A stretch of DNA of 64,000 nucleotides from Candidatus Spongiisociaceae bacterium (GTDB taxonomy: Bacteria; Actinomycetota; Acidimicrobiia; Spongiisociales; Spongiisociaceae), in assembly GCA_965202675.1 (NCBI GenBank), contig OZ241842.1:323188-387187 (forward strand), in the 5' to 3' direction. Below are positions 13,592 to 62,546 of the stretch, piece after piece; position 1 is the stretch's first letter, and each line of letters begins with the position of its first letter. A model generated the notes under the pieces. That model was given only the letters and a program-made list of their open reading frames with translations. It ran no database searches and was not told the origin of the DNA. Made by a program: the position numbers and the translations under genes.

Positions 13592-13642
13592 GCGGTTTTA
13601 TCCGATGAGCCCCCTCGACCACTGTCCGTTTCGGGTTCGGGG

Positions 13643-43883: not shown

Positions 43884-45913
43884 ACCGCTCCGCCCGCCGT
43901 CACCACTCCCCGGTCCACCGCCGCCAGGGCCTGGGAAGCCGTCCGGTCCAGCCCGCCGATCCCCAGCGCCCCGGCCGCATCCCTGAGCTGGCGCAGCACA
44001 TCCATTATCTGGCGGGAGGTGCGCACGAAGTCCCCGGGATCCAGGGAGGTGTCCTCCAGGAGGTCCTCCAGGTCGCGGAACTGCGCCCAGGCGTAGGCGA
44101 GCGGGCCGAAGCCGGGCTGGGGAGGGCGGGTGGCGGCCAGCCCGTGCGCCTGCTCGGCGGCGGTGTGGCGCTCCCACAGGTCGACCAGCAGGCCCCATCG
44201 CTGCTCCAGGGTCACGGACGGCCAGTCCCCGCCCGGTTCGGCATCCCGCCGCGGCTCGTACACGAAAGTCGAGGCCAGGGCGGCCAGCTCCGGGGGGGAG
44301 ACATCCTCGAAAACGCCCGCCTGCGCCGCCTCCACCAGCAGGAAGTCCATCTCGTTGTAGACCTTTCGCAGCGCCTGGCCCGGCGGCAGCAGGTTCCAGC
44401 CGTCCAGGTAGCCCCGCTCCGCCAGCAGGTTCCGGGTGCGGTGGAAGAAACCCACCAGGTCATCCGAGGCGCCCGACCGTTCGAGGCCCGGACTGCTCCG
44501 CACCACCCGCGCCCCCCTGAGCCGGAACTGGGCGAACGAGGCCTCGAGCAGCCGCTCGGCCTGCCGGCGGGGGTAGTTGGCCACCAGGTTCACCGCCATG
44601 TTGTAGGTGGGGCGGAAGTTGGAGCGCAGCGGATGGCTGCCCATCTGGGCGATGGCCGCCGCCCGCTCGAACGGTACGTAGGGCGAGTGCAGCACCACGC
44701 CGTGGCCCACCTCGTCGATTCCCCGCCGCCCGGCCCGCCCGGTCAGCTGCGTGAACTCGCCCGGGAGCATCAGCTCGTGGCCCTCGCCGGTGAACTTGGT
44801 GAGGCTGTCGAGCACCACGGTGCGGGCGGGCATGTTGATGCCGAGGGACAGCGTCTCGGTGGCGAACACCAGCTTTACCAACCCGTCGCAGAAGAGCTGC
44901 TCCACCACCTCCTTGAAGGCGGGGACCAGCCCGGCGTGGTGGGCGGCCACTCCTTTTTCCAGGGCGGCCAGCCACCGGCCGTAGCCGAGGGCCCGCAGGT
45001 CGGCGGCCTCCAGGCGGGCGGCGCCCTGCTCGGCCCGGCGGCGTATCTCCTCCTGTTCCTCCCGGTCGGTCAGCCTGATCCCGGTTACCGACGCCCGGGC
45101 CGCCGACTCGTCGCACCCCGCCCGGGAGAACACGAAGTAGATGGCCGGCAGCATGTCGAGGGCGGCCAGGCGCTCCACCATCTCCAGCCTTCTGGGGGTT
45201 GCGAAGCGCCGCCGGCGGCCGCCGCGGCGGGCCAGCATCCCCGAAATCGACCTGTTGGGGAGGGTTCCCCGGGCGGCCTCCTCGAACAGCGGAAGGGTGT
45301 GGATCTTGGCTTCGAAGCGGTCTTTCACCGCCCACCATCTCTCCAGGGGGACGGGCCGGTGGTCTTCGATCACCAGCTCGGCGCGCCCCCTCCGGGACCG
45401 CAGCCAGTCGGTGAACTCGCCGGCGTTGGCCACGGTGGCCGACAGGCACACCAGCCGGATGTGCCGGGGGGCGTGGATGATCACCTCCTCCCAGACCGCC
45501 CCCCGGAAGCGGTCCTGGAGGTAATGGACCTCGTCGAGCACCGCAGTATCCACCGAGGACAGGTCGGCGCCGGCGTAGATCATGTTCCGCAGCACCTCGG
45601 TGGTCATGACCACGATCGGCGCCTCTCCGTTGATGGTGTTGTCTCCGGTCAGCAGGCCCACCCGCTCGGCGCCATACGCCGCCGTGAAATCGCGGAACTT
45701 CTGGTTGGACAGGGCCTTCAGGGGGGTGGTGTAGAACACCCGGCGGCCTCTTTCCAGGCTCAGATGGACCGCCGCCTCGGCCACCAGGGTCTTGCCCGCC
45801 CCGGTGGGGGCCGTCACCACCACCGACGACCCCCGCTCCACCGCCTCGGCCGCCATGGTCTGGAACGGGTCGGGCCGGAACGGGAGGGACTCGAAGAACC
45901 GGTCGACCCTCAT
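43880..45913 (-). CDS. helY: DEAD/DEAH box helicase, HelY/Ski2-like
   Basis: Motif I APTGAGKT, DEVH, SAT, HHAGL, QLTGRAGRRG; ATG at 45913 overlaps tatC stop. Confidence 0.8.
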   Translation of the reverse strand: MRVDRFFESLPFRPDPFQTMAAEAVERGSSVVVTAPTGAGKTLVAEAAVHLSLERGRRVFYTTPLKALSNQKFRDFTAAYGAERVGLLTGDNTINGEAPIVVMTTEVLRNMIYAGADLSSVDTAVLDEVHYLQDRFRGAVWEEVIIHAPRHIRLVCLSATVANAGEFTDWLRSRRGRAELVIEDHRPVPLERWWAVKDRFEAKIHTLPLFEEAARGTLPNRSISGMLARRGGRRRRFATPRRLEMVERLAALDMLPAIYFVFSRAGCDESAARASVTGIRLTDREEQEEIRRRAEQGAARLEAADLRALGYGRWLAALEKGVAAHHAGLVPAFKEVVEQLFCDGLVKLVFATETLSLGINMPARTVVLDSLTKFTGEGHELMLPGEFTQLTGRAGRRGIDEVGHGVVLHSPYVPFERAAAIAQMGSHPLRSNFRPTYNMAVNLVANYPRRQAERLLEASFAQFRLRGARVVRSSPGLERSGASDDLVGFFHRTRNLLAERGYLDGWNLLPPGQALRKVYNEMDFLLVEAAQAGVFEDVSPPELAALASTFVYEPRRDAEPGGDWPSVTLEQRWGLLVDLWERHTAAEQAHGLAATRPPQPGFGPLAYAWAQFRDLEDLLEDTSLDPGDFVRTSRQIMDVLRQLRDAAGALGIGGLDRTASQALAAVDRGVVTAGGAV

Positions 45914-46629
45914 TTCTTGAGGAACCATCTCACCAGCCAGATGGTGCCCTCGTAGAACAGATACAGGGGCGCGGAGAGCAGCAGCAGGGTCAGGGGGTCG
46001 CCGGTGGGGGTGAGCGCCGCCCCCACCGTGACGATGATCAGCACCGCCCAGCGCCGCCCGGCGGCCAGCCTGGCCGAAGACACCGCCCCCGCCGCCGCCG
46101 CCGCAAACAGAAAAACCGGGAACTGGAAGGAGACGCCGAACAGCAGCAGGAAGCGCACCGTGAACCTGGTGTAGTGCTCGACGGTGACGAAGGTCTCCAG
46201 GTCGTCGAAGATGGTCAGCAGGAACCCCAGGGCCCGCTCCATGCTCCAGTAGGCGAACGCCACCCCCAGCCCGAACAGGACCACCATGGCGCCGACCACC
46301 GGGAAGGCCCACTTGCGTTCCCTGGGGGTGAGGCCGGGGTTCACGAAGGCCCAGATCTGGTAGGTGATCACCGGGCTGGCCAGCACCGCCCCGCCGAACA
46401 GGGACATCCGCATGGCGATGGAGAAAGGCTCGGTGGGTCCGGTGACGATCAGCGGCTTGTCGGACACCAACAGGTAGGGCCCCTGCAGGACGGCGAGCAT
46501 CCAGTCCCGGAAGAAGAAGGCCGCCGCCGCGCCCACCGCCAGGGCGGCCATGACCTTGACCAGCCGCGACCGCAGCTCGGTCAGATGGCCCATGAGGGGC
46601 TGGCTGGACAGGTCGGCCTGTTCGGTCAT
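45910..46629 (-). CDS. tatC: twin-arginine translocase subunit TatC
   Basis: Six TM segments, MGHLTELRSRL N-terminus. Confidence 0.9.
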   Translation of the reverse strand: MTEQADLSSQPLMGHLTELRSRLVKVMAALAVGAAAAFFFRDWMLAVLQGPYLLVSDKPLIVTGPTEPFSIAMRMSLFGGAVLASPVITYQIWAFVNPGLTPRERKWAFPVVGAMVVLFGLGVAFAYWSMERALGFLLTIFDDLETFVTVEHYTRFTVRFLLLFGVSFQFPVFLFAAAAAGAVSSARLAAGRRWAVLIIVTVGAALTPTGDPLTLLLLSAPLYLFYEGTIWLVRWFLKK

Positions 46630-47306
46630 GATTCCGCCGCCCGGCCGTCCGCCCCGGCGCCGTCTGTCTCGCCGGCGGGCCGGGTATCCGCGGTTTCTTC
46701 ATCGGGGGCGGCGTCTCGGGAGGCTTCGCCTCCGGCGGCGGGGGCCGCTGCGGGCGGCGGGTGCACCACGGCGGGCATCGGATCTCCCATACCCCGGCGG
46801 GATTCACTCGGGGGCACCCCCACCGGAGGGTCGGGGGCTATCCATCGCGCCCCGGGGGCCTGCCCGCCGCCGGACGCATCATCGGCCGGGCTGTCCGCCC
46901 CGGCGCCCTCCGCGGCGTCCGGTTCGGGGGCCGGCGCGGCGCCGCCCGCCTCCTTGCCCGCTCCGTCCGCGGCCGCCGCTCCGTCCGCCCCGGGCGTCGG
47001 GGGCGGGTTCTTGGCGGCCTGCCTTATCTCCCGCTCGGCTGCCCTGGCGGTCTCGGCCGTCTCCCTGAAGGTGCGGCGGACGTCCGCCGCCGGCTGGGAA
47101 AGTTCCTGCCGGATCTCCTTGATGGGCTCTCGGATCGGCCCCACCTCCTGCTCGATTCCCCGCCGCAGATCGGTTACCGCCTGCCGCAGCTCCCGCACGT
47201 ACCGGCCGATGGAGCGGGCGAGGTCGGGAAGGCGGTTGGGGCCGAACACCACCAGCGCGATGACCGCGATGGTGAGGATCTCGGCGCCGCTCAGGGAATC
47301 GAACAC
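46626..47306 (-). CDS. tatA: Sec-independent translocase TatA/TatB family protein with long Ala/Pro/Gly-rich tail
   Basis: N-terminal TM + amphipathic helix ILTIAVIALVVFGPNRLPDLARSIG. Confidence 0.75.
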   Translation of the reverse strand: MFDSLSGAEILTIAVIALVVFGPNRLPDLARSIGRYVRELRQAVTDLRRGIEQEVGPIREPIKEIRQELSQPAADVRRTFRETAETARAAEREIRQAAKNPPPTPGADGAAAADGAGKEAGGAAPAPEPDAAEGAGADSPADDASGGGQAPGARWIAPDPPVGVPPSESRRGMGDPMPAVVHPPPAAAPAAGGEASRDAAPDEETADTRPAGETDGAGADGRAAES

Positions 47307-47356
47307 GGTCCCATGGTACAGCCGTATATGCCCCTGCTATGCCCCGTTCGCCCGGG

Positions 47357-48295
47357 TCAGGCCTCCCCGTACCGGGACAGGATGGCCCGCCTGAGCCGCT
47401 CCGTTTCCTGCGACACCTCTTCTCCCTCCACCAGGCGCGCCCGGTCTCCGAGGCGGATCAGCAGGCGGGCCGTCACCCTGGGGTCGGCGGCGGCGAAGCG
47501 CACCACCAGCTCGCCGCCGTCGTCCGAGACGGTCTCCACCGGGTAGTACTCGGCCGCCCAGCGGGCCTCTTCTCCGAGGGCCAGCACCGCGTAGACGCTG
47601 TCGGCGGAGGGGGTGAAAGCCACCGTCGGCGGGCCGCCGCCCGGGGCGGATTCGAAGGTCTCGTCGAGGACGGTCAGCGACCTGATCCGGTCCACCCGGA
47701 AGGTGCGCCGGTCCCCGGCCAGGCGGCAATGGGCCAGCAGGTACCACCAGCCCAGGGAGGCATGCACCATCGCAGGCTCCACCACCCGGTCGGTGGTGCG
47801 GTTGGCGCCCCCCGACAGATAGGTGAGGAGCACCGCCCGGCGGTCCGCCGCCGCCCGCCGCAGGGCGTCCAGATGTTCGGGTTCGGGGGGGAGCTCCGCA
47901 TCCAGGGCTTCGGGGGCGTCGGGGAAGAGCGCCGCGGTCAACTTCTCGACCGCCCGGCCCAGGGCGGGGTTGGGCGGGTCCAGGCCGGCCGCCGCCATTC
48001 CGGCGCTCAGCAGGCCGAGGGCTTCGGGAGGGGTGAGGCGCAGAGGCCGGGAGAAATAGTCGGCCATGTCCAGCACCACCAGGTCGTCTTCTATGGAGGC
48101 CCACATCAGGTCCTCGGGTCCGTATCCGGGAAGCCCGCACACGAACAGCAGTTCCAGGTCCTTGGCCAGCTGTTTCTCTTCCCGGTAGCCGAACCGTTCC
48201 ATCACCTCGGAGACACGCGGGTAGGGGTTGGCGATGATCCAGGGAACCATGGCCAGGATCCGGTTCAGGCGGCGGCTGGTGGAGTCGGCGCTCAC
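47357..48295 (-). CDS. pafC: proteasome accessory factor PafC (WYL-domain regulator)
   Basis: GTG overlaps pafB stop (GTGA); WYL-like WWYLLAHCRLAGDRRTFRVDRI. Confidence 0.8.
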   Translation of the reverse strand: MSADSTSRRLNRILAMVPWIIANPYPRVSEVMERFGYREEKQLAKDLELLFVCGLPGYGPEDLMWASIEDDLVVLDMADYFSRPLRLTPPEALGLLSAGMAAAGLDPPNPALGRAVEKLTAALFPDAPEALDAELPPEPEHLDALRRAAADRRAVLLTYLSGGANRTTDRVVEPAMVHASLGWWYLLAHCRLAGDRRTFRVDRIRSLTVLDETFESAPGGGPPTVAFTPSADSVYAVLALGEEARWAAEYYPVETVSDDGGELVVRFAAADPRVTARLLIRLGDRARLVEGEEVSQETERLRRAILSRYGEA

Positions 48296-49218
48296 GCTCC
48301 GCTCCTCACCCGGCTGATCACCGACCGGCGCAGCCCGGACGGAGCCAGTACCTCCGCCGCGTCGTCCAGGGCGAGGATCTGGTTGACGAAGTTCCTCTCC
48401 GCCCAGTAGGGGATGTCCAGCAGCGTCCAGCCCTCCGGGTCCCGGCCCGCCTTCCGGGCGCCGGGGAAACGGCTCTCCGCCCACCAGGCCGCGTCGGGGT
48501 GGCACCGCACCCGGGCCGTCAGCTCGGGCCCCGTCTCCCAGGGCAGGGAGGACATGATGTCGCGGGCGGCGAACCCGCCGGGGCGCTCGAAGGCGCCGGC
48601 GGGGCCGGCCGCCTCCAGGCCCTCGGCCCGGTCCAGCCGGTAGGTGCGGATATCTTCCGCCGGCCGGCCCTCCTCCGCACCGGCGAAATACCAGTGGCCC
48701 CGGTAATAGCGCATCCCGTACGGTTCGACGGTCCGCCGCCTTTCCCGGTAGGTGAAGCGCAGCCGCCGCCGTTCGAACACCGCCTCGAACACGGCGCTGG
48801 GCCGTTCACCCGGGGCGAGGTCGGCGCCCATCGGGGCCGCCGCCTCGACGAAGCGCGCCCCTCCCAGCTTCAGCAGGGCGTCCGACCCGGAGGGGCCGTC
48901 CCCGGTCCTCATCATGTGGACGGCCAACGCCAGGGCGGCGCGCTCCTCTTCGGTCAGGTCCGGGTCGATGGTGCGGTAGGCCTCGTCGGGGATCACATAG
49001 CCTTTCTCCACCTCCCAGACATCGGTGGAGCGCATCTCCAGCTTCACCCCCAGCCGCCGCAGGGTGTCCTTGTCCCGCTCGAACATGCGGCGGAAGGCCA
49101 GGTCGGAGTCCTGTCCGTAGCCGTGCACCGTGCGGCGGATCTCCCGGGCGGTCACCGGCCGTCCGGAATCGATGAGGAAGGCCAGCAGGTTGATCAGGCG
49201 CTCGATGACTGCACTCAT
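48292..49218 (-). CDS. pafB: proteasome accessory factor PafB (WYL-domain regulator)
   Basis: HTH N-terminus, YRGHWYFAGAEEG WYL motif. Confidence 0.8.
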   Translation of the reverse strand: MSAVIERLINLLAFLIDSGRPVTAREIRRTVHGYGQDSDLAFRRMFERDKDTLRRLGVKLEMRSTDVWEVEKGYVIPDEAYRTIDPDLTEEERAALALAVHMMRTGDGPSGSDALLKLGGARFVEAAAPMGADLAPGERPSAVFEAVFERRRLRFTYRERRRTVEPYGMRYYRGHWYFAGAEEGRPAEDIRTYRLDRAEGLEAAGPAGAFERPGGFAARDIMSSLPWETGPELTARVRCHPDAAWWAESRFPGARKAGRDPEGWTLLDIPYWAERNFVNQILALDDAAEVLAPSGLRRSVISRVRSGA

Positions 49219-49242
49219 GGACTTCTCCGGCCTACCCTTTCC

Positions 49243-50628
49243 CTACAGCCTCTCGATCAACCGCTCGACCCGATCGTCGTCTTCCCGGCATCCGAACGGA
49301 TCCTTGCAGATCACGGTCTGTTGGGCTTGGTCGTTCACCTTCAGATGCACCCAGTCGACCGTTACCTGCCGGTTCTTGGCCTTGGCGGCGGCGATGAACC
49401 TGCCCCGCAGCCGGGCCCTGGTGTCCTGGGGCGGGCTCATGACGGCGGCGGCCACCGCGGCGTCGGTGACCATCCGCCGCACCGCCCCCCGCCGGGCCAG
49501 CAGGTTGTAGAGGCCCCGCTCCTCGGAGACGTCGTGGTAGCTCAGATCCAGCAGCATCACCCGCGGGTGGGACAGGGGAAGGCGGAACCGGCTGCGGTAG
49601 TGCTCGATCAGGTGGTACTTGGTTACCCAGTCGACCTCCCGGACGAGGGACAGGGGTTCCTCCTCCAGGCGGGTGAGCAGGTACCCCCACCCTTTGACCG
49701 CCTGGCTGATGCCCGGCTGCCCGCCGGCCGCCTCCCGGCGGAAACCGGGGTTGCGGGCGTACTTTTCGACCCGTTCCCAGTATTCCCACTGGATGTCGAG
49801 GGCCGACATGACCCGTCCGTTGGCCATCTCCATCTTGTGGTCGCGGCAGGAGAGATCCTTGCTGATTTCCCTGATGGCCATGATCGGGTCCTTGAGGGTC
49901 ATGTCGCGGAAGATGGCGCCGCCCTCGATCATCTCGAGCAGGGCCGCGACCGTTCCCACCTTGACGAAGGTGGCGAACTCGTTCATGTTCGAGTCCCCGG
50001 CTATTACGTGGAGCCGCCGGTAGCGCTCGGCGTCGGCGTGGGGTTCGTCCCTGGTGTTGATGATCGGGCGCGACCTCGTGGTGGCCGAGGAGTCGGTGTC
50101 CCAGATGTGCTCGGCGCGCTGGGATATCGTGAATACGGGGCCCCGGGGGGTCTGGTGCAGCTTCCCCGCCCCGGTGTAGATCTGGCGGGTGACCAGGAAG
50201 GGGATCAGGACGTCCAATATCTTGTTGAAATCCGCCTTCCGGTCCACCAGATAGTTCTCGTGGCAGCCGTAGGAGTTGCCCGCCGTGTCGGTGTTGTTCT
50301 TGTAGAGGAAGATGTCGCCCCGGATGCCCTCCCCCGCCAGGCGCTGCTCGGCCGAGCGCCGGAGTTTCTCCAGCACCCGGTCCCCGGCCTTGTCGTGGGC
50401 CACCAGGTCCTCGAGTCTGAGGCATTCGGGGGTGGCGTATTCGGGGTGGCTGCCCACGTCCAGGTAGAGGCGGGCGCCGTTCTCAAGGAAGGTGTTGGAG
50501 GAACGGCCGCCCGAGGCCACGCCCCTGAAAAGGTGCCGGGCCACCTCGTCCGGGCTCAGCCGGCGCTGGCCGCGCAGGGTGCAGGTAACGCCGTATTCGT
50601 TCTCGATCCCGAAGATGCGCCTGTCCAC
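49243..50628 (-). CDS. pafA: Pup--protein ligase PafA
   Basis: [14 protein letters not shown]-terminus, glutamine-synthetase-like fold motifs. Confidence 0.9.
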
Positions 50629-50679
50629 ACTTCTAGATTAGGCGCGGAGGGGCCGCCCGGGGTTCGGCGGCCGCCCGGG

Positions 50680-51360
50680 TCAGACGCTGTCCAGCTCTTC
50701 GCGCGTCAGCCGGCGGAACCGGCGGTTGGTTCCCGCCGCCGGGGAGGCCCGTTCGAGCAGGGCGCCCTCCCAGCCGTCGATGTCGCGTTCCTCGACCACC
50801 CGGAAGGCTTCGGCCGCCTGCCTGAGGGCGTCCCCGAGGGCGGGGGTTTCTTCGTAGGACTCGCCTAGCTTGTCCGCCAGCTCGTCCGACGGGCCGCCGA
50901 TGGCGGTGTAGCCGGTCTTGTCGTAGAGGGTGCCGTCGTAGGTGACCTTGAACAGGCGGTCGTCGGCGGTGGTGCGGCCCACCTCGGCGATCAGGACCTC
51001 CACCTCGAACGGTTTGGGGCCCTGGACGAAGATGGTGCCCAGGGTCTGGGAGAAAGCCGAGGCCAGGCTCTTGGCGGTGACGTCCTCCCGCCCGTACTGG
51101 TAGCCCTTCACGTCGGCGTAGCGGATGCCGGCCACCCGCAGCGACTCGAACTCGTTGTACTTGCCGACCCCGGCGAAGGCGATGCGGTCGTAGATCTCGG
51201 AGATCTTGGTGAGGGTGCGGCTGGGGTTCTCGGCCAGGATCACCACCCCCTCCCGAACCGCCAGCGCCGCGATCGAACGGCCCCGGGCGATGCCCTTGCG
51301 GGCGTATTCGGCCCGGTCCTTGACCAGCTGCTCGGGCGGAACGTAGAAGGGAAGGGTCAC
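50680..51360 (-). CDS. prcA: proteasome subunit alpha
   Basis: GTG start overlapping prcB stop; PrcA-like sequence throughout. Confidence 0.85.
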   Translation of the reverse strand: MTLPFYVPPEQLVKDRAEYARKGIARGRSIAALAVREGVVILAENPSRTLTKISEIYDRIAFAGVGKYNEFESLRVAGIRYADVKGYQYGREDVTAKSLASAFSQTLGTIFVQGPKPFEVEVLIAEVGRTTADDRLFKVTYDGTLYDKTGYTAIGGPSDELADKLGESYEETPALGDALRQAAEAFRVVEERDIDGWEGALLERASPAAGTNRRFRRLTREELDSV

Positions 51361-52148
51361 GAAACCACCCGGACGGCCCGCTCGGCGGCGGCCGCCACCT
51401 CCTCTTCGGGCGCTTCCTCGAGGCCCGCCTCGGTTACGGTAACCACGTTCGGGTAGATGCCGCGCCGGAAGTCGGGTCCGCCGGTGGCCAGGTCCTGCCC
51501 GGACGCCGCCACCAGAGCCTGCATGGCGTGGTCGACGGCCCGGCCCCGGTCGGAGCCGGGGCGGTAGACGGTGCGCAGGTAGGCCCGCGCCTCGCGGCTG
51601 CCCGACCCCGCCGCCCCGAAGTCCTGCTCCTCGTACCGGCCCCCCACCGCATCGAAGGTAAACACATGCCCGGTCCCGGCCGGCGGCTCGTACCCGCAGA
51701 AGATCGGTACAACCAGGAACCCCCGAAGGGCCAACGGCAGATGCATGCGCACCATCCGGGCCAGGTAGGTGGCCTTCCCGTCCAGGCTGAGGCGCACCCC
51801 CTCCAGCTTCTCGTAGTGCTCCAGCTCGGTCTGGAACAGCCTGACCAGCTCGATCGCCAGACCCGCCGTGCCGGAGATGGCCACCGCCGAGTAGGCGTCG
51901 GCGGCGAACACCTTCTGGATGCGCCGGTGCGACACGTCGTATCCGGCCGTGGCCTGGCGGTCGCCCGCCATCATCACCCCCCCGTCGTAGCGCAGGGCCA
52001 GCACGGTGGTGGCTTCCGGAGCGGCGACGTTCGAGGGTCCGGCCTCCGCCGGAAGGTCCCACCGGGGGGCGAGGTCGAGGGAGCGGGCCAGCTCGGTGAA
52101 GCCGGCCCCGGGATAGGGCTCGCCGTACGAGAGCAGGGCGCCGTTCAC
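51357..52148 (-). CDS. prcB: proteasome subunit beta
   Basis: Propeptide then TTVLALRYDGGVMMAGD (catalytic Thr), GSGS; GTG start overlapping pup stop. Confidence 0.85.
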   Translation of the reverse strand: MNGALLSYGEPYPGAGFTELARSLDLAPRWDLPAEAGPSNVAAPEATTVLALRYDGGVMMAGDRQATAGYDVSHRRIQKVFAADAYSAVAISGTAGLAIELVRLFQTELEHYEKLEGVRLSLDGKATYLARMVRMHLPLALRGFLVVPIFCGYEPPAGTGHVFTFDAVGGRYEEQDFGAAGSGSREARAYLRTVYRPGSDRGRAVDHAMQALVAASGQDLATGGPDFRRGIYPNVVTVTEAGLEEAPEEEVAAAAERAVRVVS

Positions 52149-52330
52149 TCCCCGCCTTTCTGCACGTAGTTCTTCACGAACTCCTCGGCGTTCTCCTCGA
52201 GCACCGAATCTATCTCTTCCAGCAGGTCGTCGATCTTGGCGATCGAACCGGCGGCGCCCGACGGCGGCGGCCCGGCGCCCGATGTTTCCTCGCGCTCGGT
52301 GCGCCTTCTGGGCAGACGCTCTTGGGCCAT
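52145..52330 (-). CDS. pup: prokaryotic ubiquitin-like protein Pup (C-terminal GGE)
   Basis: 61 aa, ...IDDLLEEIDSVLEENAEEFVKNYVQKGGE. Confidence 0.85.
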   Translation of the reverse strand: MAQERLPRRRTEREETSGAGPPPSGAAGSIAKIDDLLEEIDSVLEENAEEFVKNYVQKGGE

Positions 52331-52905
52331 ATCTCCTCCTAACGGGAACCCGGGCGCACCCCCGGCAGGGGCGGCCCGGCGGGTCCGTAAATCGTCGGCG
52401 CCGCCATGATAATCGGGGCCGCCCGGTTTTCAGGAGACATCGGCGGCGGATGCTCGCGCCGCCGCCGGTGATTTCGGCGCCGGCCGGGCCGGGAACCCGG
52501 AATCGAGGACCCCGCCGGGGTTGCCGCCGATCGGGGCGCGGCGCGCGCGGACAGGAAAGCCGGAAGGCGTTCGGCGCAAGCAGCTGTTGGACGCTCTGCC
52601 CGATGAGCACGGTCGGCCGGGCGCCGCCCCCGCCGACGAAACGGCGAAGGCAACCCCATCCGCGCATCCTCTTGCAAGCGCAGCACCCTTCAGCAGAGCT
52701 CGGGGGCCTTTCTGCGAACCCCCTGGTCAAAACCCCTCTCCCGCCCCCACCGATCTGCTGGACAATGAACCCGCCTCCGGGCCTTTTCTGCGAACCCGCC
52801 TGTCAAACCCCTCTCGCACCGGCTTCCGCCCAGGTCAACCCCCAGGCAACAGATGCTTTCTGCGAACCCCTGGTCAAGCCCCTGCCCCGACCCCGGACCC
52901 CGGCC

Positions 52906-53140
52906 AGAACGCGAAAAACCCCGCCCCGCGCCCCGCTTCGCGGGCCCGGCCCCCACCGCCTCCACCAGATGTCCGGACGCGTTCGGTCAGTACCCGGCAG
53001 GTCGCGTTCGGAAGATGATCCCTGTCACGGTCTGCGGCGCCTGCCGACCGGAGGTGCTTGCGGCTCTTCCATTGATACAGCATCGGTGCGACATCGTCAA
53101 TACCCTTGTCAGGGATCCGACGGGATTTTTTTGTCATTCC
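52906..53140 (-). repeat. promoter-bearing repeat element, variant family, copy 6, inside a ~780-bp dop-pup intergenic insertion
   Basis: ~90% identical to 13355-13591; left flank 52690-52905 carries three CTTTCTGCGAACCC motifs as in 12975-13300. Confidence 0.7.
53066..53101 (-). promoter_or_regulatory. sigma70-like promoter TTGACG-N17-TATCAA reading toward pup-prcB-prcA
   Basis: -35 rc at 53096-53101, -10 rc at 53073-53078. Confidence 0.45.
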
Positions 53141-54635
53141 GTGATTTGTCCGGACCGCCGGCGGCCTCACCCAGGGCTTCGAGCAGGTCGACGGCTTCCC
53201 CGGCGGCGTCGAGCAGCCCTCCCACCAGCTCCGCGCTGCCCCGCAGGGGTTCCTTCATGGGCACCCGCTTGAGGGTCTCCCCCCCGATGTCGAACACCAG
53301 GGAGTCCCAGTTGGCGGCGACCAACGATTCGGGGAACTGCCCCACGCACCGCCCCCGGAAGTAGGCCCTGGTGCCGGCGGGCGGGTGCAGGGCGGCGCGG
53401 TCCAGCGCCTCGTCGGTGAACAGGCGGCGGAGCAGCCCGCCCTCCTGCAGGCGGTAGGAGAGGCCCCGGGCGGGGTCGGTGTCGTGGTACTGGAGGGCGG
53501 CCAGGGCCAGCTTGGGGTGGCTCCATTCCAGGTCGTCGCGCCGGCGGAACCCGTTCAGCATGCGGAGCTTGGCCGACCAGTCGAGCCGGTCGGAGGTGCG
53601 CATGAAGTCGATCTCCAGGTCGTGGAGCACCGCCCCCCACTCGCGGATCACGTCGGCCCAGATCTCCCCGGGAAGGTGCTCGTCGGCGTACTTCGACAGC
53701 CGCTCGTGATACCGGAGCTGCAGCTCGAGGGCGGTGGCCGTCCCCCCGTCGGCCAGCCGCAAGGGCTCGGCCAGGGTGAGGTCGTGGCTGGTGCGCCAGG
53801 TCGCCTCCACCGGGTCGGCCAGGGTCAGGGGGTCGTGGACGGCGCCGTCCTCGACGGCCGCCAGCAGCAGGGCGGTTGCGCCCAGCTTGATGAAGGTCTG
53901 CACCTCCGACATGTTGGCGTCGCCGATGATTACGTGGAACCGCCGGTACTTGGAGGGCTCCCCATGGGGCTCGTCGCGGGTGTTGACGATGGGCCGCCGC
54001 AGGGTGGTCTCGAGACCCACCGCCTCCTCGAAGAAGTCGGCCCGCTGGGTGATCTGGTACCCGACGCCCGGACGTCCGTTCTCGGCGCCGAGCTTGCCCG
54101 AACCGGTGAATATCTGGCGGGTTACCAGCCAGGTGGTGGCGTAGCGGATGAGGTCGGCGAAGGGCGCGGCCCGCGAAACCAGATAGTTCTCGTGGTAACC
54201 GTAGGAGTTGCCCTTCCCGTCGCTGTTGTTCTTGTGTATGTACAGCTCCTCCTCCGGACGGAAGCCGCGGTACGCGGCGGCCGCGTCCGCCAGCACCCGC
54301 TCCCCCGCCTTGTCGTACAGTGCGGCCTGCAGGGGGTCGGAGCACTCCGGGCTGGAGTATTCGGGGTGGGCGTGGTCTACGTAGAAGCGGGCGCCGTTGG
54401 ACAGGACCACGTTGACCATGTTGTTGTTCGCCTCGGCGGGTCCGTACAGCTCGTACTCCAGGCCGCGGGCGTCCCGGTCGGGGGTTTCCTCGTCGTATGA
54501 CCACTGGACCCGCACCCGGTCGCCCCGGTAGGAGTTCACCACCCAGGAGGAGGCCAGGGTGGGGTGGAGGTCGGGGTTGTTGCGGACCGTGATCCCGTAT
54601 TCCGTCTCGGTCCCTATGACCGTGGGGACCGCCAT
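53109..54635 (-). CDS. dop: Pup deamidase/depupylase Dop
   Basis: MAVPTVIGTETEYG N-terminus, PafA/Dop fold; 3' end runs into repeat element. Confidence 0.85.
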   Translation of the reverse strand: MAVPTVIGTETEYGITVRNNPDLHPTLASSWVVNSYRGDRVRVQWSYDEETPDRDARGLEYELYGPAEANNNMVNVVLSNGARFYVDHAHPEYSSPECSDPLQAALYDKAGERVLADAAAAYRGFRPEEELYIHKNNSDGKGNSYGYHENYLVSRAAPFADLIRYATTWLVTRQIFTGSGKLGAENGRPGVGYQITQRADFFEEAVGLETTLRRPIVNTRDEPHGEPSKYRRFHVIIGDANMSEVQTFIKLGATALLLAAVEDGAVHDPLTLADPVEATWRTSHDLTLAEPLRLADGGTATALELQLRYHERLSKYADEHLPGEIWADVIREWGAVLHDLEIDFMRTSDRLDWSAKLRMLNGFRRRDDLEWSHPKLALAALQYHDTDPARGLSYRLQEGGLLRRLFTDEALDRAALHPPAGTRAYFRGRCVGQFPESLVAANWDSLVFDIGGETLKRVPMKEPLRGSAELVGGLLDAAGEAVDLLEALGEAAGGPDKSRNDKKIPSDP

Positions 54636-54637
54636 GC

Positions 54638-56413
54638 CTACAGGTACTGGCCGGTTCCGACCGCCTCTATGGTCCTCGACTCGTCCTCGCCCTCGATCAG
54701 GGTGCGCACGTAGACGATCCGCTCCCCCTTCTTGCCCGAGATCTTCGCCCAGTCGTCGGGGTTGGTGGTGTTGGGGAGGTCCTCGTGTTCCCGGAACTCC
54801 TGCTTGATGGCCGACAGCAGGTCGTTCAAGGTGATGCCGCCGGAGGCGCCGCCGATCCGGCGCTTGATGGCGTCTTTCTTGGCCCGGCGCACGATGTTTT
54901 CGATCATGGCCCCCGAAGAGAAATCCCGGAAGTAGAGCACTTCCCGGTCCCCGTTCTGGTAGGTGACCTCGAGGAAACGGTTGCCGTCGCTGTCCTCGTA
55001 CATGGCCTCGACCACCCGGTCGACCATCTGCTTCACCAGGGCCCGGCCGTCTCCCCCGGCTTTTTCCAGGGCTTGCTCGTCGTAGGGCAGGTCCGGGCTC
55101 AGGTAGATGCGGAAGATCTGCTTGGCGGCCTCGGCGTCCGGGCGGGCGATCTTGATCTTCACATCCAGGCGCCCCGGACGGAGGATGGCCGGATCGATCA
55201 GGTCCTCGCGGTTGGAGGCGCCGATCACTATGACGTTCTTGAGCTGCTCCACCCCGTCCAGCTCGGAGAGCAGCTGCGGGACGATGGTCGACTCCACGTC
55301 GGAGGAGATGCCGGAGCCCCTGGTGCGGAACAGGGAGTCCATCTCGTCGAAGAAGACGATGACCGGAACCCCCTCGTCGGCTTTTTCCTTGGCCCGCTGG
55401 AAGATCAGCCTTATCTGGCGTTCGGTCTCCCCCACGTACTTGTTGAGCAGCTCCGGGCCCTTGATGTTGAGGAAGTAGGAGCGGGCGTCCTCGTTGCGGG
55501 CACGCTCGGCCACCGCTTCGGCCAGGCTGTTGGCCACCGCCTTGGCGATGAGGGTCTTGCCGCACCCCGGCGGCCCGTAGAGCAGCACCCCCTTGGGGGA
55601 GACCAGCCCGTATTCCTCGAAGAGCTCGCGGTGGATGAAGGGCAGCTCCACCGCATCCCGGATCGCCTCTATCTGGTCCCGCAGGCCCCCCACCTCCCCG
55701 TAGGTGATGTCGGGCACCTCTTCGAGCACCAGCTCCTCGACCTCGGGGCGGAACAGCTTCTCGTAGGCCAGGCCGGTGCGGTTCTCCAGGAGCACGTGGT
55801 CTCCCGCCCGCAGATGGGTTTCCGACAGGGGGCCGGCCCGCTCCACCACCCGTTCCTCGTCGGTGTGGGCCAACACCAGCAGCCGGTTGTCCTCCATCAC
55901 CTCCTTGATGGAGACCACCTGGCCCTGGCGGGTGAAATCCCGCACCTCCACGATGGACATGGAATCGTTCACCAGCACCTGCTGGCCCGGCTGCAGCTGC
56001 TTGATCTCGATGGAGGGCGAGGCGTTGACCCGCATCCGGCGGTCCCCGCTCATTACGTCGACGGTGCTGTCGCTGTTGACCCCCAGCACGGTGGCGAAGG
56101 GGTTGGGGGCGGCGGTGAGCTTCTCGACCTCTTCGCGCATCATGGCCACCTGCTCGCGGATGTCCTCGATCACCTCGGTGAGTTTCCGGTTCTTGAGGCG
56201 GGCCTTCTCCAGCTGGGCCCTGGTTTCGGCCAACCGGGATTCCACCATCCTGACCGGGCGGGGTCCGGTCTGGAGCTGGCGGCGGAGCATCGCTATCTCC
56301 TCCCGCATGGCGTCCATCTGGCGCTGGTTGTCGTACGGCTGCCGCCGGCCGGACGCGGGTTCCATCCAGCGTTGGTAGTCGTACGGTTCCCGCTTGTCAG
56401 GCAACGGCGGCAC
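54638..56413 (-). CDS. arc: proteasome-associated AAA ATPase ARC/Mpa
   Basis: Coiled-coil, OB inter-domain, Walker [10 protein letters not shown]-terminal GQYL; N-terminal start uncertain. Confidence 0.9.
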
Positions 56414-56554
56414 CTCGGCTCTCCCGGCTTGTCGGGCGCCGGGCTTGCTGTTTTCTCGGGCTAACGCAGTATAGGAGGGTAGCGGTGGGAGAACAGGGGG
56501 TTTCCCGGCGGGGGCCCGCCCCGTTTTCCGAAGGCGGTCCGGGCGGGCCGGGGA

Positions 56555-57406
56555 TCAGGCCGGCCGGACGCAGCGCGCCGAGGTCACGAAGCCGGTATGC
56601 CCCACCATCCCGTGGTCGGGGCGCACCGAACGCCCGGTTACATTCCAGGTGCGGAGCAGCACCTCGAACGTCTCCACGTCGGCGAACCGGCCGCTGCCCC
56701 GGAGCGCCCTATGCAGCTGCTCGAGCTGGGGCACGGTGGGCAGGTAGCAGCACAGGACGCCGCCCGTGCGCAGGCCCCGCAGGGCGGGAATGACCACCTC
56801 CCACGGCTCGGGGATGTCCAGCACCAAGCGGTCGTGCTCGATCTCCGCCGCCGTTTCGGCCACGTCGCCCACCCGGAGATCCAACCACTCCGGCACCTCC
56901 CCGAAGCGGCGGACGACGGCGGCCCGGGCGTGGGCGGCGTGATCCTCCCTGATCTCGCAGGAGGCCACCCGCCCGGCCGGCCCCACCGCCCTGGCGAGGG
57001 TCATGGCCAGGGCGCCGGATCCGGTGCCGCCCTCGACCACGGTCAGGCCGGGGTGGATGTCGGCGTACATGAGAACGGCGCCCAGGTCCTTGGGGTAGAC
57101 GATCTGGGGGCCGCGCCGCATCTTGAGGAGGTAGTCCCCCAGCCGGGGGCGGAGGGCGGTCAGGGGCGCCCCTTTGGAGGACCGCAGGCGGGCGCCGTCC
57201 GGGGCGCCGATCAGCTCGGCGTGGGCCAGGGCGCCCAGGTGGTACTGGAACACCCCGTCCGCCCGCAGGTGGAGCAGGTACTTGCGTCCCTTGCCGTCGA
57301 TCAGGAGGACCGGTTCGCCCTCGGCCAGGGGGCGCCCCCGGGGCAACGGCGCATCGGACGACTCGGGCGGGCCGGGCGCGTCGGGCGGGCCGGGGGCGGC
57401 GGCCAC
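56555..57406 (-). CDS. trmI: tRNA (adenine58-N1)-methyltransferase TrmI-like
   Basis: SAM motif VVEGGTGSGALAMTLA; Rv2118c-like position beside arc. Confidence 0.8.
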   Translation of the reverse strand: MAAAPGPPDAPGPPESSDAPLPRGRPLAEGEPVLLIDGKGRKYLLHLRADGVFQYHLGALAHAELIGAPDGARLRSSKGAPLTALRPRLGDYLLKMRRGPQIVYPKDLGAVLMYADIHPGLTVVEGGTGSGALAMTLARAVGPAGRVASCEIREDHAAHARAAVVRRFGEVPEWLDLRVGDVAETAAEIEHDRLVLDIPEPWEVVIPALRGLRTGGVLCCYLPTVPQLEQLHRALRGSGRFADVETFEVLLRTWNVTGRSVRPDHGMVGHTGFVTSARCVRPA

Positions 57407-57678
57407 GATTCAGTCGAAGCCTATGGAGATGACGCCGGCCAGCAGGGTGAGGATCATGCCGGCCACGGTTACCCACACCACTGTCTGCACCCATCTCGGA
57501 GTCCGCCTCATGGGTATGCACTCTATAGCCTCCCGCCGCCGATCCCCCCGGCGGACGCCCGGGCGACGAACAACCCCCTTGCGACGCACCCATCCGGATG
57601 CGCAGTCTTGCGCTCAGTGCAGGAACCCGGCTGCGGCAAAGAACGGCAAAGAATTTTTCGCATTCCAGGATGAGGGTA

Positions 57679-57714
57679 TTGAACTTGTCATAGGTTTGCG
57701 GTACTATGTGTGCG
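57679..57714 (+). promoter_or_regulatory. sigma70-like promoter TTGAAC-N17-TACTAT
   Basis: -35 57679-57684, -10 57702-57707, predicted TSS ~57714 followed by hairpin GTGTG-CGCTGA-CACAC. Confidence 0.5.
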
Positions 57715-57887
57715 CTGACACACAAACACCGCCGCCGGAGTTCCGGAGCGCGCGGCGGTCATGATCGGAACCTTGTCTGTCCGGGCGCCGGCGCCCGGTG
57801 CAGGGCGGCTCGCCCGAGCGGCGGATCCGATGCCGGTGGAGGAGGCGGGGGAGGGTCCCGGCGCAGCCGGGGGCGGTGCGCCCGGAT

Positions 57888-57955
57888 TTCGCGTTCTCGA
57901 ATGGCGGGCGTTCTCGAATGGCGGGCGTTCTCGAATGTTGGGCGTTCTCGAATGC
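57888..57955 (+). repeat. 4 x 17-bp tandem iterons CGGGCGTTCTCGAATGG
   Basis: Direct count in sequence; derived from element terminal motif TTTCGCGTTCTCGAATGG. Confidence 0.85.
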
Positions 57956-58215
57956 CGGGGTCGGGTGAAGAAAAGGGCGCGTCCCGGATGAGGCGGTTCC
58001 GAGTGCGCACGGCTGCTGCGGAACGAGAACTCCCTGGGTTCGCGGACGACTTCGGGAGATGGACGGCTCCGGGATGCGTATGATTGCCGCGGCGGCGGGC
58101 ATTCCGCCCCGGTGTTGTTGATGATTCTGCCGCGCGGCGCGGCGCACGGCAACCAGAAGCGTTGCGCGCCTGTACCGGCAGTGCATACACCGGTCTACCG
58201 GTAGAAATGAGGAAC

Positions 58216-58431
58216 ATGTCGGGACGCAGACGCATCGGCTATGTCCTGCTGCGCCGCGGGCTGCGGAAGGGCAATGTCCTGCTCCAGGCGGCGGGGGCGT
58301 TCCTGATCCTGCTCCATTGGGCCAGGCGCCGCCGGGCGGCCGTTTTCGACCTGGAAGCGGGGCAGAAGGCGGGGCTGGCGGTCAACCGGCCCGGAGACGG
58401 CCCGATTGCCTTCCGCATAGAATCGGCCTGA
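58216..58431 (+). CDS. small hypothetical membrane protein (72 aa) downstream of repeat element
   Basis: GAGGA RBS before ATG; one TM helix; weak. Confidence 0.3.
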   Translation: MSGRRRIGYVLLRRGLRKGNVLLQAAGAFLILLHWARRRRAAVFDLEAGQKAGLAVNRPGDGPIAFRIESA

Positions 58432-58481
58432 CCGCAGACGGCGCCCGCGTTGTCGGGCCCGGGAACCTGCGGGCAGGCGGG

Positions 58482-58676
58482 TCAGAGGCGGTGTATCTCG
58501 ATCCTCGCCCCCCGGCGGCGCCTCCCCCGCCTGCGCCCCGCCAGGAAGACGGCGGCGAGGGCGGCGGCGGCCCCCAGGGTATTCTTCACCGCGGAAGAGC
58601 GCACGGCCTCGCCCGCTTCGAAGACGGCTTCTTCCAGCTCCCTGGCTTTCGCCTCTATGTCGCCGCGTTCGATCAC
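58482..58676 (-). CDS. DUF3618-like small protein
   Basis: GTG overlapping upstream gene stop (GTGA); commonly paired with actinobacterial holin-X-like genes. Confidence 0.35.
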   Translation of the reverse strand: MIERGDIEAKARELEEAVFEAGEAVRSSAVKNTLGAAAALAAVFLAGRRRGRRRRGARIEIHRL

Positions 58677-58978
58677 GGCGAGGCCTTCGAGCGGGAAGCG
58701 GCTTTCACAACCAGGAAAGCGGCGGCCAGGGCGGCCAGCCCTCCGATCAGGTAGGCCAGGGCGCTCCACAGCTGGGTGTCCGGCAGCAGGTCCTGGAGGA
58801 GGCGCAGACCCGCCACCGCCAGGAACAGCCATCCCGCGGCCAGCAGCAGACCCCCCAGCAGGCTGACGCCGGCGAAGCGGGCGGTGCGGCGCAGGGGCGC
58901 TACGGCCTCCTGTTCGAGGTAGCTCTTCGACATCTCGAACAGCTCGGACGCCAGTTTGGGTATCTCGGTTGTTTTCAT
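58673..58978 (-). CDS. phage holin family (actinobacterial Holin-X-like) membrane protein
   Basis: MKTTEIPKLASELFEMSKSYLEQE then two TM helices; ~100 aa. Confidence 0.55.
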   Translation of the reverse strand: MKTTEIPKLASELFEMSKSYLEQEAVAPLRRTARFAGVSLLGGLLLAAGWLFLAVAGLRLLQDLLPDTQLWSALAYLIGGLAALAAAFLVVKAASRSKASP

Positions 58979-59201
58979 GCGGAAACCGGGTGGGCTCGGG
59001 GTTGCGCTTCCGATTCTACCAGCCGGGGCGGTTGCCTTCCGGGAGCCGGATTCGATGGTTCGACCGGTCCGGGGGCCGGTTTGGTTACCCTCCCGCCCCA
59101 TGCCCCCGCCGCCCCCCTCCGCCGGCCGCCACGGCCGGGCCTATGTGTTCTCCACCTCCCAGGGATCGCGGCGCGGGCCCTTCGGGTGGGTGGAATGGGC
59201 G

Positions 59202-60032
59202 ATGCTGTGCGGGGTGACCCTGTTCTGGGGGTCGGCCTACTCGCTCATCGACCTGGGGTTGGAGGGCTTCGCACCCCCCGCCATCACCTGGGTGAGGATC
59301 GTGCTCGGCTTCGTGATCCTGCTGTCCTTCAAGACCTCCCGCCGTCCGGTGGAGCGGGCCGACTGGGGCCGCATCGCCGTGCTGGGAATAACCTGGTTCA
59401 CCGTACCCTTTCTTCTGTTTCCCATCGCCCAGCAGCACATCGACTCGGCCCTGGCCGGGATGCTGACCTCCATGGTGCCCATCTACAGCACCGTCATCGC
59501 GTCGGTGATGCTGTCCGCGCTCCCCAGGGCCCGCCAGGCGGCGGGGATAGTCCTGGGGGCCGCAGGAGGTGCCGGCATCAGCATCCCCGCCCTCGGAGGT
59601 TCGGAATCCAGCGCCTGGGGGGTGATGCTGATCACCGCCGCCACCATCACCTACGGGCTGTCGATCGCCCTGGCCGTGCCGCTGCAGCAGCGCTACGGGG
59701 CTCCGGCGGCGATGATGCGGGCGATGGGGGTGGCCGCCGTCATCACCATGCCCACGGGGATCATCGGGCTGGCCGGCTCCGAATGGCAGGCCGCTTCGGC
59801 GGCGGCGGTGGCGGGCCTGGGCGTCTTCAGCACCGGAACGGCCTTCGTGCTCATGACCGCCCTGGTCGGAAGGGTGGGACCCACCCGGGGCGCCGCCCCC
59901 ATCTACATCCTCCCGGCGGTCGCCATGGTGATCGGCATGACCTTCCGGGGCGACGTGATAGCGCCCCTCCAATGGGCCGGCACCGCCCTGGTAACCCTGG
60001 GCGCCTGGCTGACCAGCCGCCGCGAGGCCTGA
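59202..60032 (+). CDS. EamA/DMT family transporter
   Basis: Ten predicted TM helices in two EamA repeats; alternative GTG start at 59190. Confidence 0.75.
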   Translation: MLCGVTLFWGSAYSLIDLGLEGFAPPAITWVRIVLGFVILLSFKTSRRPVERADWGRIAVLGITWFTVPFLLFPIAQQHIDSALAGMLTSMVPIYSTVIASVMLSALPRARQAAGIVLGAAGGAGISIPALGGSESSAWGVMLITAATITYGLSIALAVPLQQRYGAPAAMMRAMGVAAVITMPTGIIGLAGSEWQAASAAAVAGLGVFSTGTAFVLMTALVGRVGPTRGAAPIYILPAVAMVIGMTFRGDVIAPLQWAGTALVTLGAWLTSRREA

Positions 60033-60260
60033 CCCCGGGCCGGTCCGCTCCGACCGGGCTGCATCCCGGCGCCCCCCAACCGGTGTGTTCCTGCGGACAA
60101 GGGTCTAGACCTTAGCGATATTTTATGATATACAGTAGATTATGATACTCAACACTCTACTCAAGCACTCGGTAAGTTCGGGAGCGCCCTGGTCCGGGGC
60201 GCGGGCCGACGGGCGGCGTTGCGGACCGATGAACAAGCCGGCCGGCGGGGGGAGGCGGGC

Positions 60261-60998: not shown

Positions 60999-61156
60999 CT
61001 GCGCCGCCGCCGGGCCGGGCTCCGGCGGACCGTTCGGCGGAACAGGAGGGCCGGGGCCGGATTGCCGCTGTTCCGGGCCCTCGGGGGGATATCATCATCG
61101 GCGGCGCAGCACCGGAACCGGAATGCGCATCCATTGCCTGGCGTTGCGGGAGCAGT

Positions 61157-62434: not shown

Positions 62435-62510
62435 ATGCGCAGTTCCTGCGCCCCTCCGCGCAGGAACCCGGCGGCGGCAAGAATATTTTTCGCGTTCCGG
62501 GATAAGGGTA

Positions 62511-62546
62511 TTGAATTTGTCGCAGGTTTGCGGTACTATGTGTGCG
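62511..62546 (+). promoter_or_regulatory. sigma70-like promoter TTGAAT-N17-TACTAT
   Basis: -35 62511-62516, -10 62534-62539. Confidence 0.5.

Follow-up and report, generated by a model that had tools for sequence, protein, structure and literature searches.

Comparison with related loci shows that non-coding DNA, including one copy of a dispersed repeat, has split an ancestral overlapping junction between dop and pup, two genes of the Pup-proteasome system. The junction lies in the window analyzed here, the whole of a 64,000-nucleotide stretch from Candidatus Spongiisociaceae bacterium (contig OZ241842.1, positions 323,188 to 387,187 of the forward strand), and the dop-pup gap occupies positions 52331-53108 of it, 778 bp in all. 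The best explanation is a joint one, to which we give a probability of about 0.58: the junction was split by repeat-containing DNA, a candidate promoter adjacent to pup (called P2 below) drives pup, and the repeat unit is dispensable. As to the part that concerns expression, the allele comparisons described below indicate that pup and the proteasome core genes prcB and prcA very probably have a promoter of their own inside the inserted DNA.

A search with Dop recovered 80 loci, nearly all from metagenome-assembled genomes of Acidimicrobiia, and 78 of them also hold pup; the closest has 72% Dop identity to the window. The start of pup in these 78 relatives falls at a median of -8 bp relative to the dop stop, typically between -8 and +17; no true gap exceeds 167 bp, and the next largest is 79 bp. 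A few strongly negative values are artefactual, tblastn having run on through low-complexity tails. The Dop proteins of the relatives align only to residues 488-490 of the window protein, which accordingly carries an extension of about 18 residues (AAGGPDKSRNDKKIPSDP). The gap is judged to be derived because the relatives have a median of -8 and a maximum of 167 bp, and because their Dop ends at about residue 489 of the window protein; by this comparison it is a real and unusual feature. A first-pass annotation, made by a model from the letters of the window, had stated that pup normally follows dop directly and that about 780 bp separate them here, and both statements hold. It had also stated that the dop stop (53109) runs into a copy of a repeat element. 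This too is correct: the stop codon of the dop open reading frame is 53109-53111 (the 508-residue length is counted from the start MAVPTVIGTETEYG), the homology to another repeat copy at 13346-13598 begins at 53147, inside the dop 3' end, and the last 12 codons and the stop therefore lie within the repeat unit, which supplies 12 of the approximately 18 residues of the extension as well as the stop. An exact-protein look-up of the window Dop returned no record.

The gap can be divided into four parts: a dispersed repeat of about 245 bp, three direct repeats of about 75 bp each, about 260 bp of single-copy spacer, and a block of 110 bp adjacent to pup. The GC content by codon position is flat across the gap (0.68-0.75 at all three positions, versus 0.70/0.45/0.94 in dop), and the insertions and deletions that distinguish alleles within it are not multiples of three. 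These two properties rule out a hidden gene in the spacer, and the gap is non-coding. A relic of the dop 3' end was also considered for the spacer and ruled out, tblastn and blastn giving only noise.

The remainder of the gene cluster is conventional. Pfam matches on a 3.16-Mb contig that is about 99% identical to the window (L082/L105) give the order arc, dop, pup, prcB, prcA, pafA, pafB, pafC, with AAA/Prot_ATP_ID_OB, Pup_ligase (twice), Pup, Proteasome (twice) and WYL/HTH_PafC all represented, which places the cluster among Pup-proteasome loci. The canonical locus of Actinobacteria (PMC8223512) has identical genes in identical order; the window differs from it in that dop and pup are 778 bp apart rather than overlapping, and in that Dop has a tail that is partly encoded by a repeat. 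Two further statements of the first-pass annotation were confirmed, namely that the gene order is otherwise canonical and that Pup ends in GGE. The same C-terminus occurs in 50 of the 78 relatives, and GGQ in 27.

The most informative evidence on expression comes from alleles of the junction. Contigs were recovered from several samples by exact-protein look-ups with Pup, Arc and a nuclease encoded elsewhere in the window, and they are taken to represent one population because their third-codon-position divergence from the window across pup to pafC is only about 1.2-1.5%. The dop-pup spacer has at least four structural forms in this population, of which allele A is that of the window. Allele A' (L082, L105 and L090) has one extra unit of about 76 bp, producing a gap of 854 bp in L082. 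In allele B (L083, L085, L087, L088 and L089), homology to the window begins exactly at TTTTCGCGTTCT, and both dop and the repeat unit are missing from this position. The allele-B DNA upstream of pup (L083:1-2630) has a lower GC content (49-62%) and contains small open reading frames, a divergently oriented gene for an SLH-domain protein and an open reading frame that resembles a transposase fragment (by eye; no Pfam match). Allele C (L106) consists of dop, the first two-thirds of the repeat unit, a 1,295-bp IS110-family insertion sequence (IS) in the opposite orientation, and then the rest of the unit.

The insertion in allele C is flanked on both sides by window sequence, with L106 10201-10443 matching 53213-52972 of the window and L106 11748-11802 matching 52964-52911. 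The intervening element (L106:10453-11747, at about 52964-52972 in the window) belongs to the IS110 family by its Pfam matches to PF01548 DEDD_Tnp_IS110 and PF02371 Transposase_20; its open reading frame is frameshifted in this contig and its 5' non-coding end is about 245 nt long. Elements of the IS110 family insert sequence-specifically into repetitive elements (PMC11208160; PMC12288879), and the insertion site in L106 is a purine-rich block that is conserved in both subfamilies of the repeat. Within the 5' non-coding region of the element, CTCGGTG is the same as 7 nt flanking the insertion, and ATAGGAGC matches the element's own 3' end. These segments could be bridge-RNA guides; the candidates CTCGGTG / GGTGGCGG match 7 nt next to the junction and 8 nt of the donor end, and both matches are near the chance level. 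From these alleles we infer that the repeat unit makes the junction a hot spot of structural change, through changes in repeat number, IS110-family insertion and replacement of the upstream region by a foreign island.

Allele B has a divergent gene ahead of pup and nothing co-oriented with it there, and therefore pup needs a promoter downstream of TTTTCGCGTTCT. The leading candidate for this promoter is found in the block next to pup. When allele B is compared to the window, 203 of 260 positions of the distal spacer are identical (78%), versus 105 of 111 positions of the proximal block (95%; binomial P = 1.6e-6), and the longest perfect run in the spacer is a 34-nt segment, 52403-52436, that exactly encloses P2 (CTGAAA-N16-TATCAT). 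P2 fits 9 of 12 hexamer positions with a 16-nt spacer, as would be expected of a sigma-70/SigA promoter. It was the only sigma-70-type match of a generic scan in 52000-53400 (0.0 expected), and in allele B (L083) the 940 bp preceding pup likewise gave no other. The second locus with a repeat of the same subfamily, located between a bifunctional-nuclease gene and a MerR-family gene, has the same layout: the repeats vary between lineages, the last approximately 240 bp before the MerR gene are almost invariant, and these 240 bp contain a promoter-like stretch ending in TATAAT (by eye). Membership of P2 itself in the repeat family was considered and discarded, because no convincing alignment to the 3' ends of the other copies was obtained.

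According to the joint explanation, pup-prcB-prcA would no longer be translationally coupled to dop and would be expressed mainly from P2 in the conserved 110 bp. The predicted transcription start is near 52399, which would leave a 5' untranslated region of about 70 nt. The promoter-like sequence within the repeat unit, P1, would be dispensable for pup. In alleles A and A', read-through from dop, together with P1 if it is active, may add to pup transcription; a contribution of read-through is suggested because no terminator is predicted between the genes (none was found on the minus strand in 52000-53400).

Several points weigh against this explanation. The -35 hexamer of P2 is poor (CTGAAA, 4/6), and the promoter-like matches in 44001-64000 number three versus 1.0 expected, which is not striking alone. 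P1 and P2 were both identified by consensus match only. That the proximal block is so well kept in allele B may in part mark a mosaic recombination boundary rather than selection, although differences reach to within 5-7 bp of the Shine-Dalgarno sequence. The 370 bp peculiar to allele B could also hold the promoter used there. The explanation does not account for the 370-bp spacer, which has no similarity to Dop or to any other sequence compared. Finally, the repeat unit contains several invariant blocks, which leave room for an undetected function.

An alternative is that P1 is the main driver of pup-prcB-prcA, with a start near 53065, and that the repeat rewired transcription of the proteasome genes. 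The first-pass annotation had described TTGACG-N17-TATCAA as a promoter pointing at pup, and the sequence is indeed present in that orientation, with its -35 at 53100-53095 and its -10 at 53077-53072. The -35 hexamer is a good match (TTGACG, 5/6), the spacer of 17 nt fits, an A-tract precedes the promoter, and a canonical terminator is not found between P1 and pup. Furthermore, the block CACCGATGCTGTATCAATGGA is common to most subfamily-2 copies, and in five of the six copies of the repeat, each directly downstream of a co-oriented gene, the promoter-like block points onward on that strand. The -10 element is the weak point. The final T is near-invariant in the -10 elements of sigma-70/SigA promoters, and TATCAA lacks it and so departs from the TAnnnT rule; the generic scan does not call P1. 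The core also varies, reading TGCCGCAAAG...TATTAA in L082 (GATGCCGCAAAGATGCTGTATTAA, 4 changes in 27 bp) and TGCCGCAAAG...TATCAA, with TGCC, in L106. Allele B lacks P1, and in allele C the 1.3-kb IS110-family insertion stands between P1 and pup; the pup-proximal region is nevertheless kept. The unit also evolves faster than synonymous sites. A leading role for P1 thus seems unlikely. Of the earlier proposal that an insertion rewired transcription here, the split by inserted DNA stands and a separate pup promoter is very probable, while the identification of P1 as that promoter is not supported.

A simpler model dispenses with internal promoters altogether and has pup-prcBA transcribed only by read-through from the arc-dop promoter, the 778 bp being an inert spacer. 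The minus strand shows no terminator-like structure in 52000-53400, and shuffled sequence is predicted to fold as stably as the spacer RNA, both as this model would have it. The alleles are difficult to reconcile with it. In allele B the upstream gene is divergent and read-through cannot operate, yet pup and its proximal block are intact, and allele C would require transcription through an oppositely oriented IS. The conservation of P2, well above that of its surroundings, also speaks against this model, and we regard exclusive read-through as improbable.

Another possibility is that the repeat unit is itself a functional gene or regulatory module, either a small RNA of about 170-200 nt with a promoter of its own or, in subfamily 1, a DNA-damage-inducible promoter dependent on PafBC, which would connect the repeat to the pafBC genes nearby. 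The published PafBC (RecA-NDp) motif is tGTCgg(N10)tA(N3)T, and PafBC promoters are without a -35 element (PMC8635444). All four subfamily-1 copies carry TGTC(A/G)-N11-TACTAT, which fits this motif, and these are the only 4 matches in the window, versus 0.48 expected (7129-7150, 22991-23012, 57686-57707 and 62518-62539). The stricter pattern TGTC[GA][GC]-N10-TAnnnT occurs four times in 903 kb of related loci. A hairpin kept between the subfamilies and several invariant blocks might likewise reflect a function. In opposition, a -35-like hexamer is found in all but one of the four copies of subfamily 1 (TTGACT, TTGAAC, TTGAAT), folding is no better than that of shuffles, the consensus structure is weak, Rfam has no match, and purifying selection is not evident. 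Subfamily 2 has GCC in place of the GTC triplet in L082, L095, L101 and L106, and its -10 is TATCAA. The dop-pup copy itself reads TGTCGC-N10-TATCAA, without the final T; the PafBC motif was rejected for this copy as weak, its -10 failing and its GTC not being kept in sister sequences. A functional module is accordingly very unlikely, and the PafBC link is a low-probability lead for subfamily 1 that does not explain the dop-pup copy. An even bolder proposal is that the repeat units form a portable, promoter-bearing regulatory layer (with SigA- or PafBC-type promoters in subfamily 1) and serve as programmed landing pads for a bridge-RNA-guided IS110 element, that their arrival between dop and pup has uncoupled the depupylase from Pup-proteasome expression, and that strain-to-strain changes in repeat number, IS insertion and island replacement tune proteasome expression within a single symbiont population; we consider this combination highly speculative.

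Finally, an assembly artefact, in which a repeat was collapsed or chimerically joined, might be suspected from the tendency of short-read scaffolds of the population to break inside repeat units, but it is refuted for practical purposes by the presence of the same dop-unit-repeats-pup order in the 3.16-Mb long-read contig at 406x coverage (L082/L105) and by independent short-read contigs from other samples that cover the dop-unit junction (L106 and L107) and the unit-pup junction (L086 and L090). The gap is not an assembly artefact.

The repeat family deserves a fuller description. The first-pass annotation had recognized a dispersed repeat element, and the block AGGGTATTG-N4-TGTC..TGC.GTA indeed occurs six times in the window, versus 0.00 expected. 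The six copies fall into two subfamilies, and the two subfamily-2 copies are 88% identical over 253 bp. Each unit combines an A/T tract and the promoter-like block with a GC-rich part of about 150-200 nt, in which the purine-rich block and a small hairpin lie, and it ends in TTTTCGCGTTCT. Near-exact copies of TTTTCGCGTTC number ten in the window, versus 0.74 expected. All six copies are intergenic, and five of them are positioned anywhere from inside the 3' end of a co-oriented upstream gene to 93 bp beyond its stop. A 26-bp palindrome (CTGTTCGGGCGCCGGCGCCCGAACAG) is present in subfamily 1 and absent from subfamily 2. As a multi-copy repeat would lead one to expect, scaffolds assembled from short reads of the population usually stop within a unit. 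The features of the window discussed here are collected in Table 1.

Table 1. Positions of the genes, junction segments and repeat copies in the window
Feature	Positions	Strand	Description and basis
dop	53109-54635	minus	508 aa including C-terminal extension of ~18 aa; Dop depupylase/deamidase; translation, and Pfam Pup_ligase on the 508-aa product of L082/L105
dop C-terminal codons	53109-53147	minus	Last 12 codons (KSRNDKKIPSDP) and stop, contributed by the repeat unit's 5' end
pup	52145-52330	minus	61 aa, C-terminal GGE; Pfam Pup
pup Shine-Dalgarno sequence	52333-52340	minus	AGGAGGAG; from the sequence; kept in all alleles
prcB	51357-52148	minus	4-bp overlap with neighbor; gene call, and Pfam Proteasome in L082
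prcA	50680-51360	minus	4-bp overlap with neighbor; gene call, and Pfam Proteasome in L082
Conserved pup-adjacent block (predicted promoter and 5' untranslated region)	52331-52440	minus	Holds CTGAAA-N16-TATCAT, a GC hairpin and the Shine-Dalgarno sequence
P2, CTGAAA-N16-TATCAT	52406-52433	minus	Best candidate promoter for pup-prcBA
Single-copy distal spacer	52441-52699	minus	Non-coding; no codon-position GC periodicity; 78% identity to allele B
Three imperfect direct repeats of ~72-76 bp	52700-52904	minus	Each with TTGACC..GGGTTCGCAGAAAG; copy number varies between strains
Repeat unit, subfamily-2 copy at dop-pup	52905-53147	minus	From CGGAATGACAAAAAAA to TTTTTCGCGTTCT; alignments
3' boundary motif of the unit	52905-52918	minus	TTTTTCGCGTTCT; ten near-exact copies in the window versus 0.74 expected, all at repeat copies; exact end of allele-B homology
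Purine-rich block	52960-52975	.	CTGGTGGAGGCGG; strand unassigned; conserved between both subfamilies; IS110-family insertion at the equivalent position in allele C
P1, TTGACG-N17-TATCAA	53072-53100	minus	Promoter-like match pointing at pup
Terminator-like hairpin followed by T7	53105-53134	plus	Opposite strand, overlaps the dop stop; also in the 13.5-kb copy
Second subfamily-2 copy	13346-13598	minus	Between bifunctional-nuclease gene and MerR-family gene; followed by the same GGGTTCRCAGAA repeats
Subfamily-1 copy	6934-7201	minus	Just downstream of the thrS stop
Subfamily-1 copy	22797-23051	minus	Downstream of cmk; adjoins low-GC restriction-modification island
Full-length subfamily-1 copy, ~540 bp	57600-58139	plus	Contains 4 copies of the 17-bp tandem repeat GCGTTCTCGAATGGCGG
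Full-length subfamily-1 copy, ~560 bp	62437-62997	plus	Begins 3 bp beyond the upstream gene's stop

The units diverge rapidly. Two lineages whose third codon positions differ by 2-8% show a divergence of 11.8% in the unit at the nuclease-MerR locus, and at dop-pup the window and L082 are 94.3% identical in the unit and 98-100% in the flanks. By comparison with third-codon-position divergence, no purifying selection on the unit was detected, and conservation of the unit across lineages was ruled out. The putative transcript, the spacer and the 5' untranslated region were folded, and none gave an energy better than those of shuffles (for the dop-pup copy z = +1.7, for a copy of subfamily 1 z = -1.0). 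Seven copies yielded only a weak consensus structure with little covariation, the one hairpin kept being CCCGGC-GCA-GCCGGG in one subfamily versus CCCGC-GAA-GCGGG in the other. With Rfam 15, only a tRNA passes the gathering threshold in the whole window, and nothing reaches E < 2 in 52200-53250 or 57550-58200. The units contain no conserved open reading frame. They also do not end in an intrinsic terminator; the hairpin lies 6-14 nt from the U-run, and the scan finds no terminator on that strand.

An inverted-repeat search of four copies of the unit gave no common terminal pair, and a 16-nt pair flanking the 13-kb copy is without counterpart at dop-pup. At the borders of the insertion, CTGGGTGAGG on the dop side and TTAGGAGG on the pup side resemble the ancestral ...TTAGGAGG-ATG junction of the relatives; the match is weak, and there is no clear target-site duplication. 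No related autonomous IS with the same ends was found in the roughly 1.1 Mb of sequence available, and the one IS seen, the IS110-family element of L106, shares no sequence with the units. Searches for the family found no copy in the 80 related dop loci, none in viral contigs, none past the left end of the window, and in JGI metagenomes a single match that is an unrelated low-GC promoter. The family is undescribed and has been seen so far only in this population. Taken together, the sequence comparisons suggest that the unit behaves as fast-evolving, probably selfish or neutral repeat DNA.

The direct repeats that follow the unit at dop-pup are spaced by 76 and 72 bp, and roughly half of each is variable. 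The three motif copies reported in the gap by the first-pass annotation are part of them: CTTTCTGCGAACCC is exact at 52708 and 52856, and a one-mismatch version, TTTTCTGCGAACCC, lies at 52784. A longer form, GGTTCRCAGAA, is confined to dop-pup and the other subfamily-2 locus, with three occurrences at each. The number of units is three in the window, four in L082 and L090, and one in L083. The same kind of repeats is found at the other subfamily-2 locus, and subfamily 1 has the 17-bp tandem GCGTTCTCGAATGGCGG at the corresponding position. A reading of GGGTTCGCAGAAAG as a LexA box was ruled out by the varying spacing to a second half-site (by eye).

Some further observations concern individual copies of the repeat and their neighborhoods. 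Tandem repeats of 17-19 bp follow the subfamily-1 units, GCGTTCTCGAATGGCGG four times at 57891-57958 and TCTCGAATGGCGGGGGGTG five times at 62721-62815, and at both loci the sequence just upstream of the promoter block resembles one more copy of the tandem motif. The predicted transcription start of subfamily 1 overlaps an operator-like GTGTG(N6)CACAC (7098-7130, 57708-57725 and 62540-62557) that does not occur in subfamily 2. The nuclease-MerR spacer (13075-13270) contains a tandem duplication of about 76-77 bp, each half with a plus-strand hairpin and a T-run (e.g. 13111-13128), which is not in the dop-pup copy. Directly downstream of the repeat copy after thrS is a defence-like pair consisting of an AAA_21/AAA_15 ATPase gene and a DUF4276 gene (4856-6657). 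The island with this pair varies between strains, with L092-L094 diverging from the window after 4781 and matching only 5430-5521 (87-89%). The copy at 22797-23051 adjoins a low-GC island (20318-22656, between cmk and ispH/der) that encodes an Eco57I-type N6 DNA methylase and has an unannotated open reading frame of 229 aa, along with many AT-rich promoter-like matches.

Two other features of the window may be mentioned. A 426-aa protein with no Pfam domain (61154-62434) has two 300-nt internal repeats in its gene (61515-61814 and 61995-62294) that are 77% identical; L106 has a 424-aa version, and an exact-protein look-up gave no record. ARAGORN reports a tRNA-Ser (aga) at 26409-26492 on the minus strand, for which the Rfam tRNA model is silent at the gathering threshold, and this may be a false positive.

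The repeat family has partial counterparts among known repeat systems. It resembles the repetitive extragenic palindromic (REP) sequences and bacterial interspersed mosaic elements (BIMEs) that are targeted by IS621 in E. coli and by ISPpu9/ISPpu10 in Pseudomonas putida, in being multi-copy, non-coding, strictly intergenic and mostly located just downstream of a co-oriented gene; like an IS110 target, the copy at the dop-pup junction has in one sister strain received a site-specific insertion of an IS110-family element, within a block that both subfamilies conserve. It differs in that the unit is about 245-550 bp and has no dominant defining palindrome of 20-40 bp, and in that only one IS insertion was seen. 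A second likeness is to the MIRU-type variable-number tandem repeats of mycobacteria, which Supply et al. reportedly described in 1997. The direct repeats of 72-76 bp lie within an operon intergenic region in the orientation of the flanking genes, and they number 1, 3 or 4 units depending on the strain. Unlike the MIRU-type repeats, they have no small open reading frame overlapping the neighboring stop and start and do not touch the pup start; they are also imperfect and always come after the larger repeat unit. A third comparison is with the Correia elements (CREE) of Neisseria and other promoter-bearing miniature inverted-repeat transposable elements, which are small dispersed non-coding elements with outward sigma-70-like promoters that alter downstream genes. 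The present family is similarly short, non-coding and multi-copy (six copies of 245-560 bp in 64 kb), but it has no shared terminal inverted repeats, no clear target-site duplication and no related autonomous element that could be found. The repeat thus behaves like REP-like IS110 targets, MIRU-like tandem repeats and promoter-bearing miniature elements, and on this analysis it fits none of these classes fully by their formal definitions.

The practical weight of these observations is modest, since the organism is uncultured and the conclusions on transcription come from comparing sequences. They also carry a caution, in that the most eye-catching promoter match, here that of P1, is probably not the one in use. 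The junction nevertheless provides a natural case in which the tight and otherwise universal coupling of dop and pup has been broken; all 78 relatives keep the two genes overlapping or close together. The repeat family appears to turn an operon junction into a hot spot for change of repeat number, IS110 insertion and island replacement. The same population also holds alleles in which pup-prcBA lies behind unrelated DNA, which suggests that the proteasome core genes can run from a short promoter region of their own.

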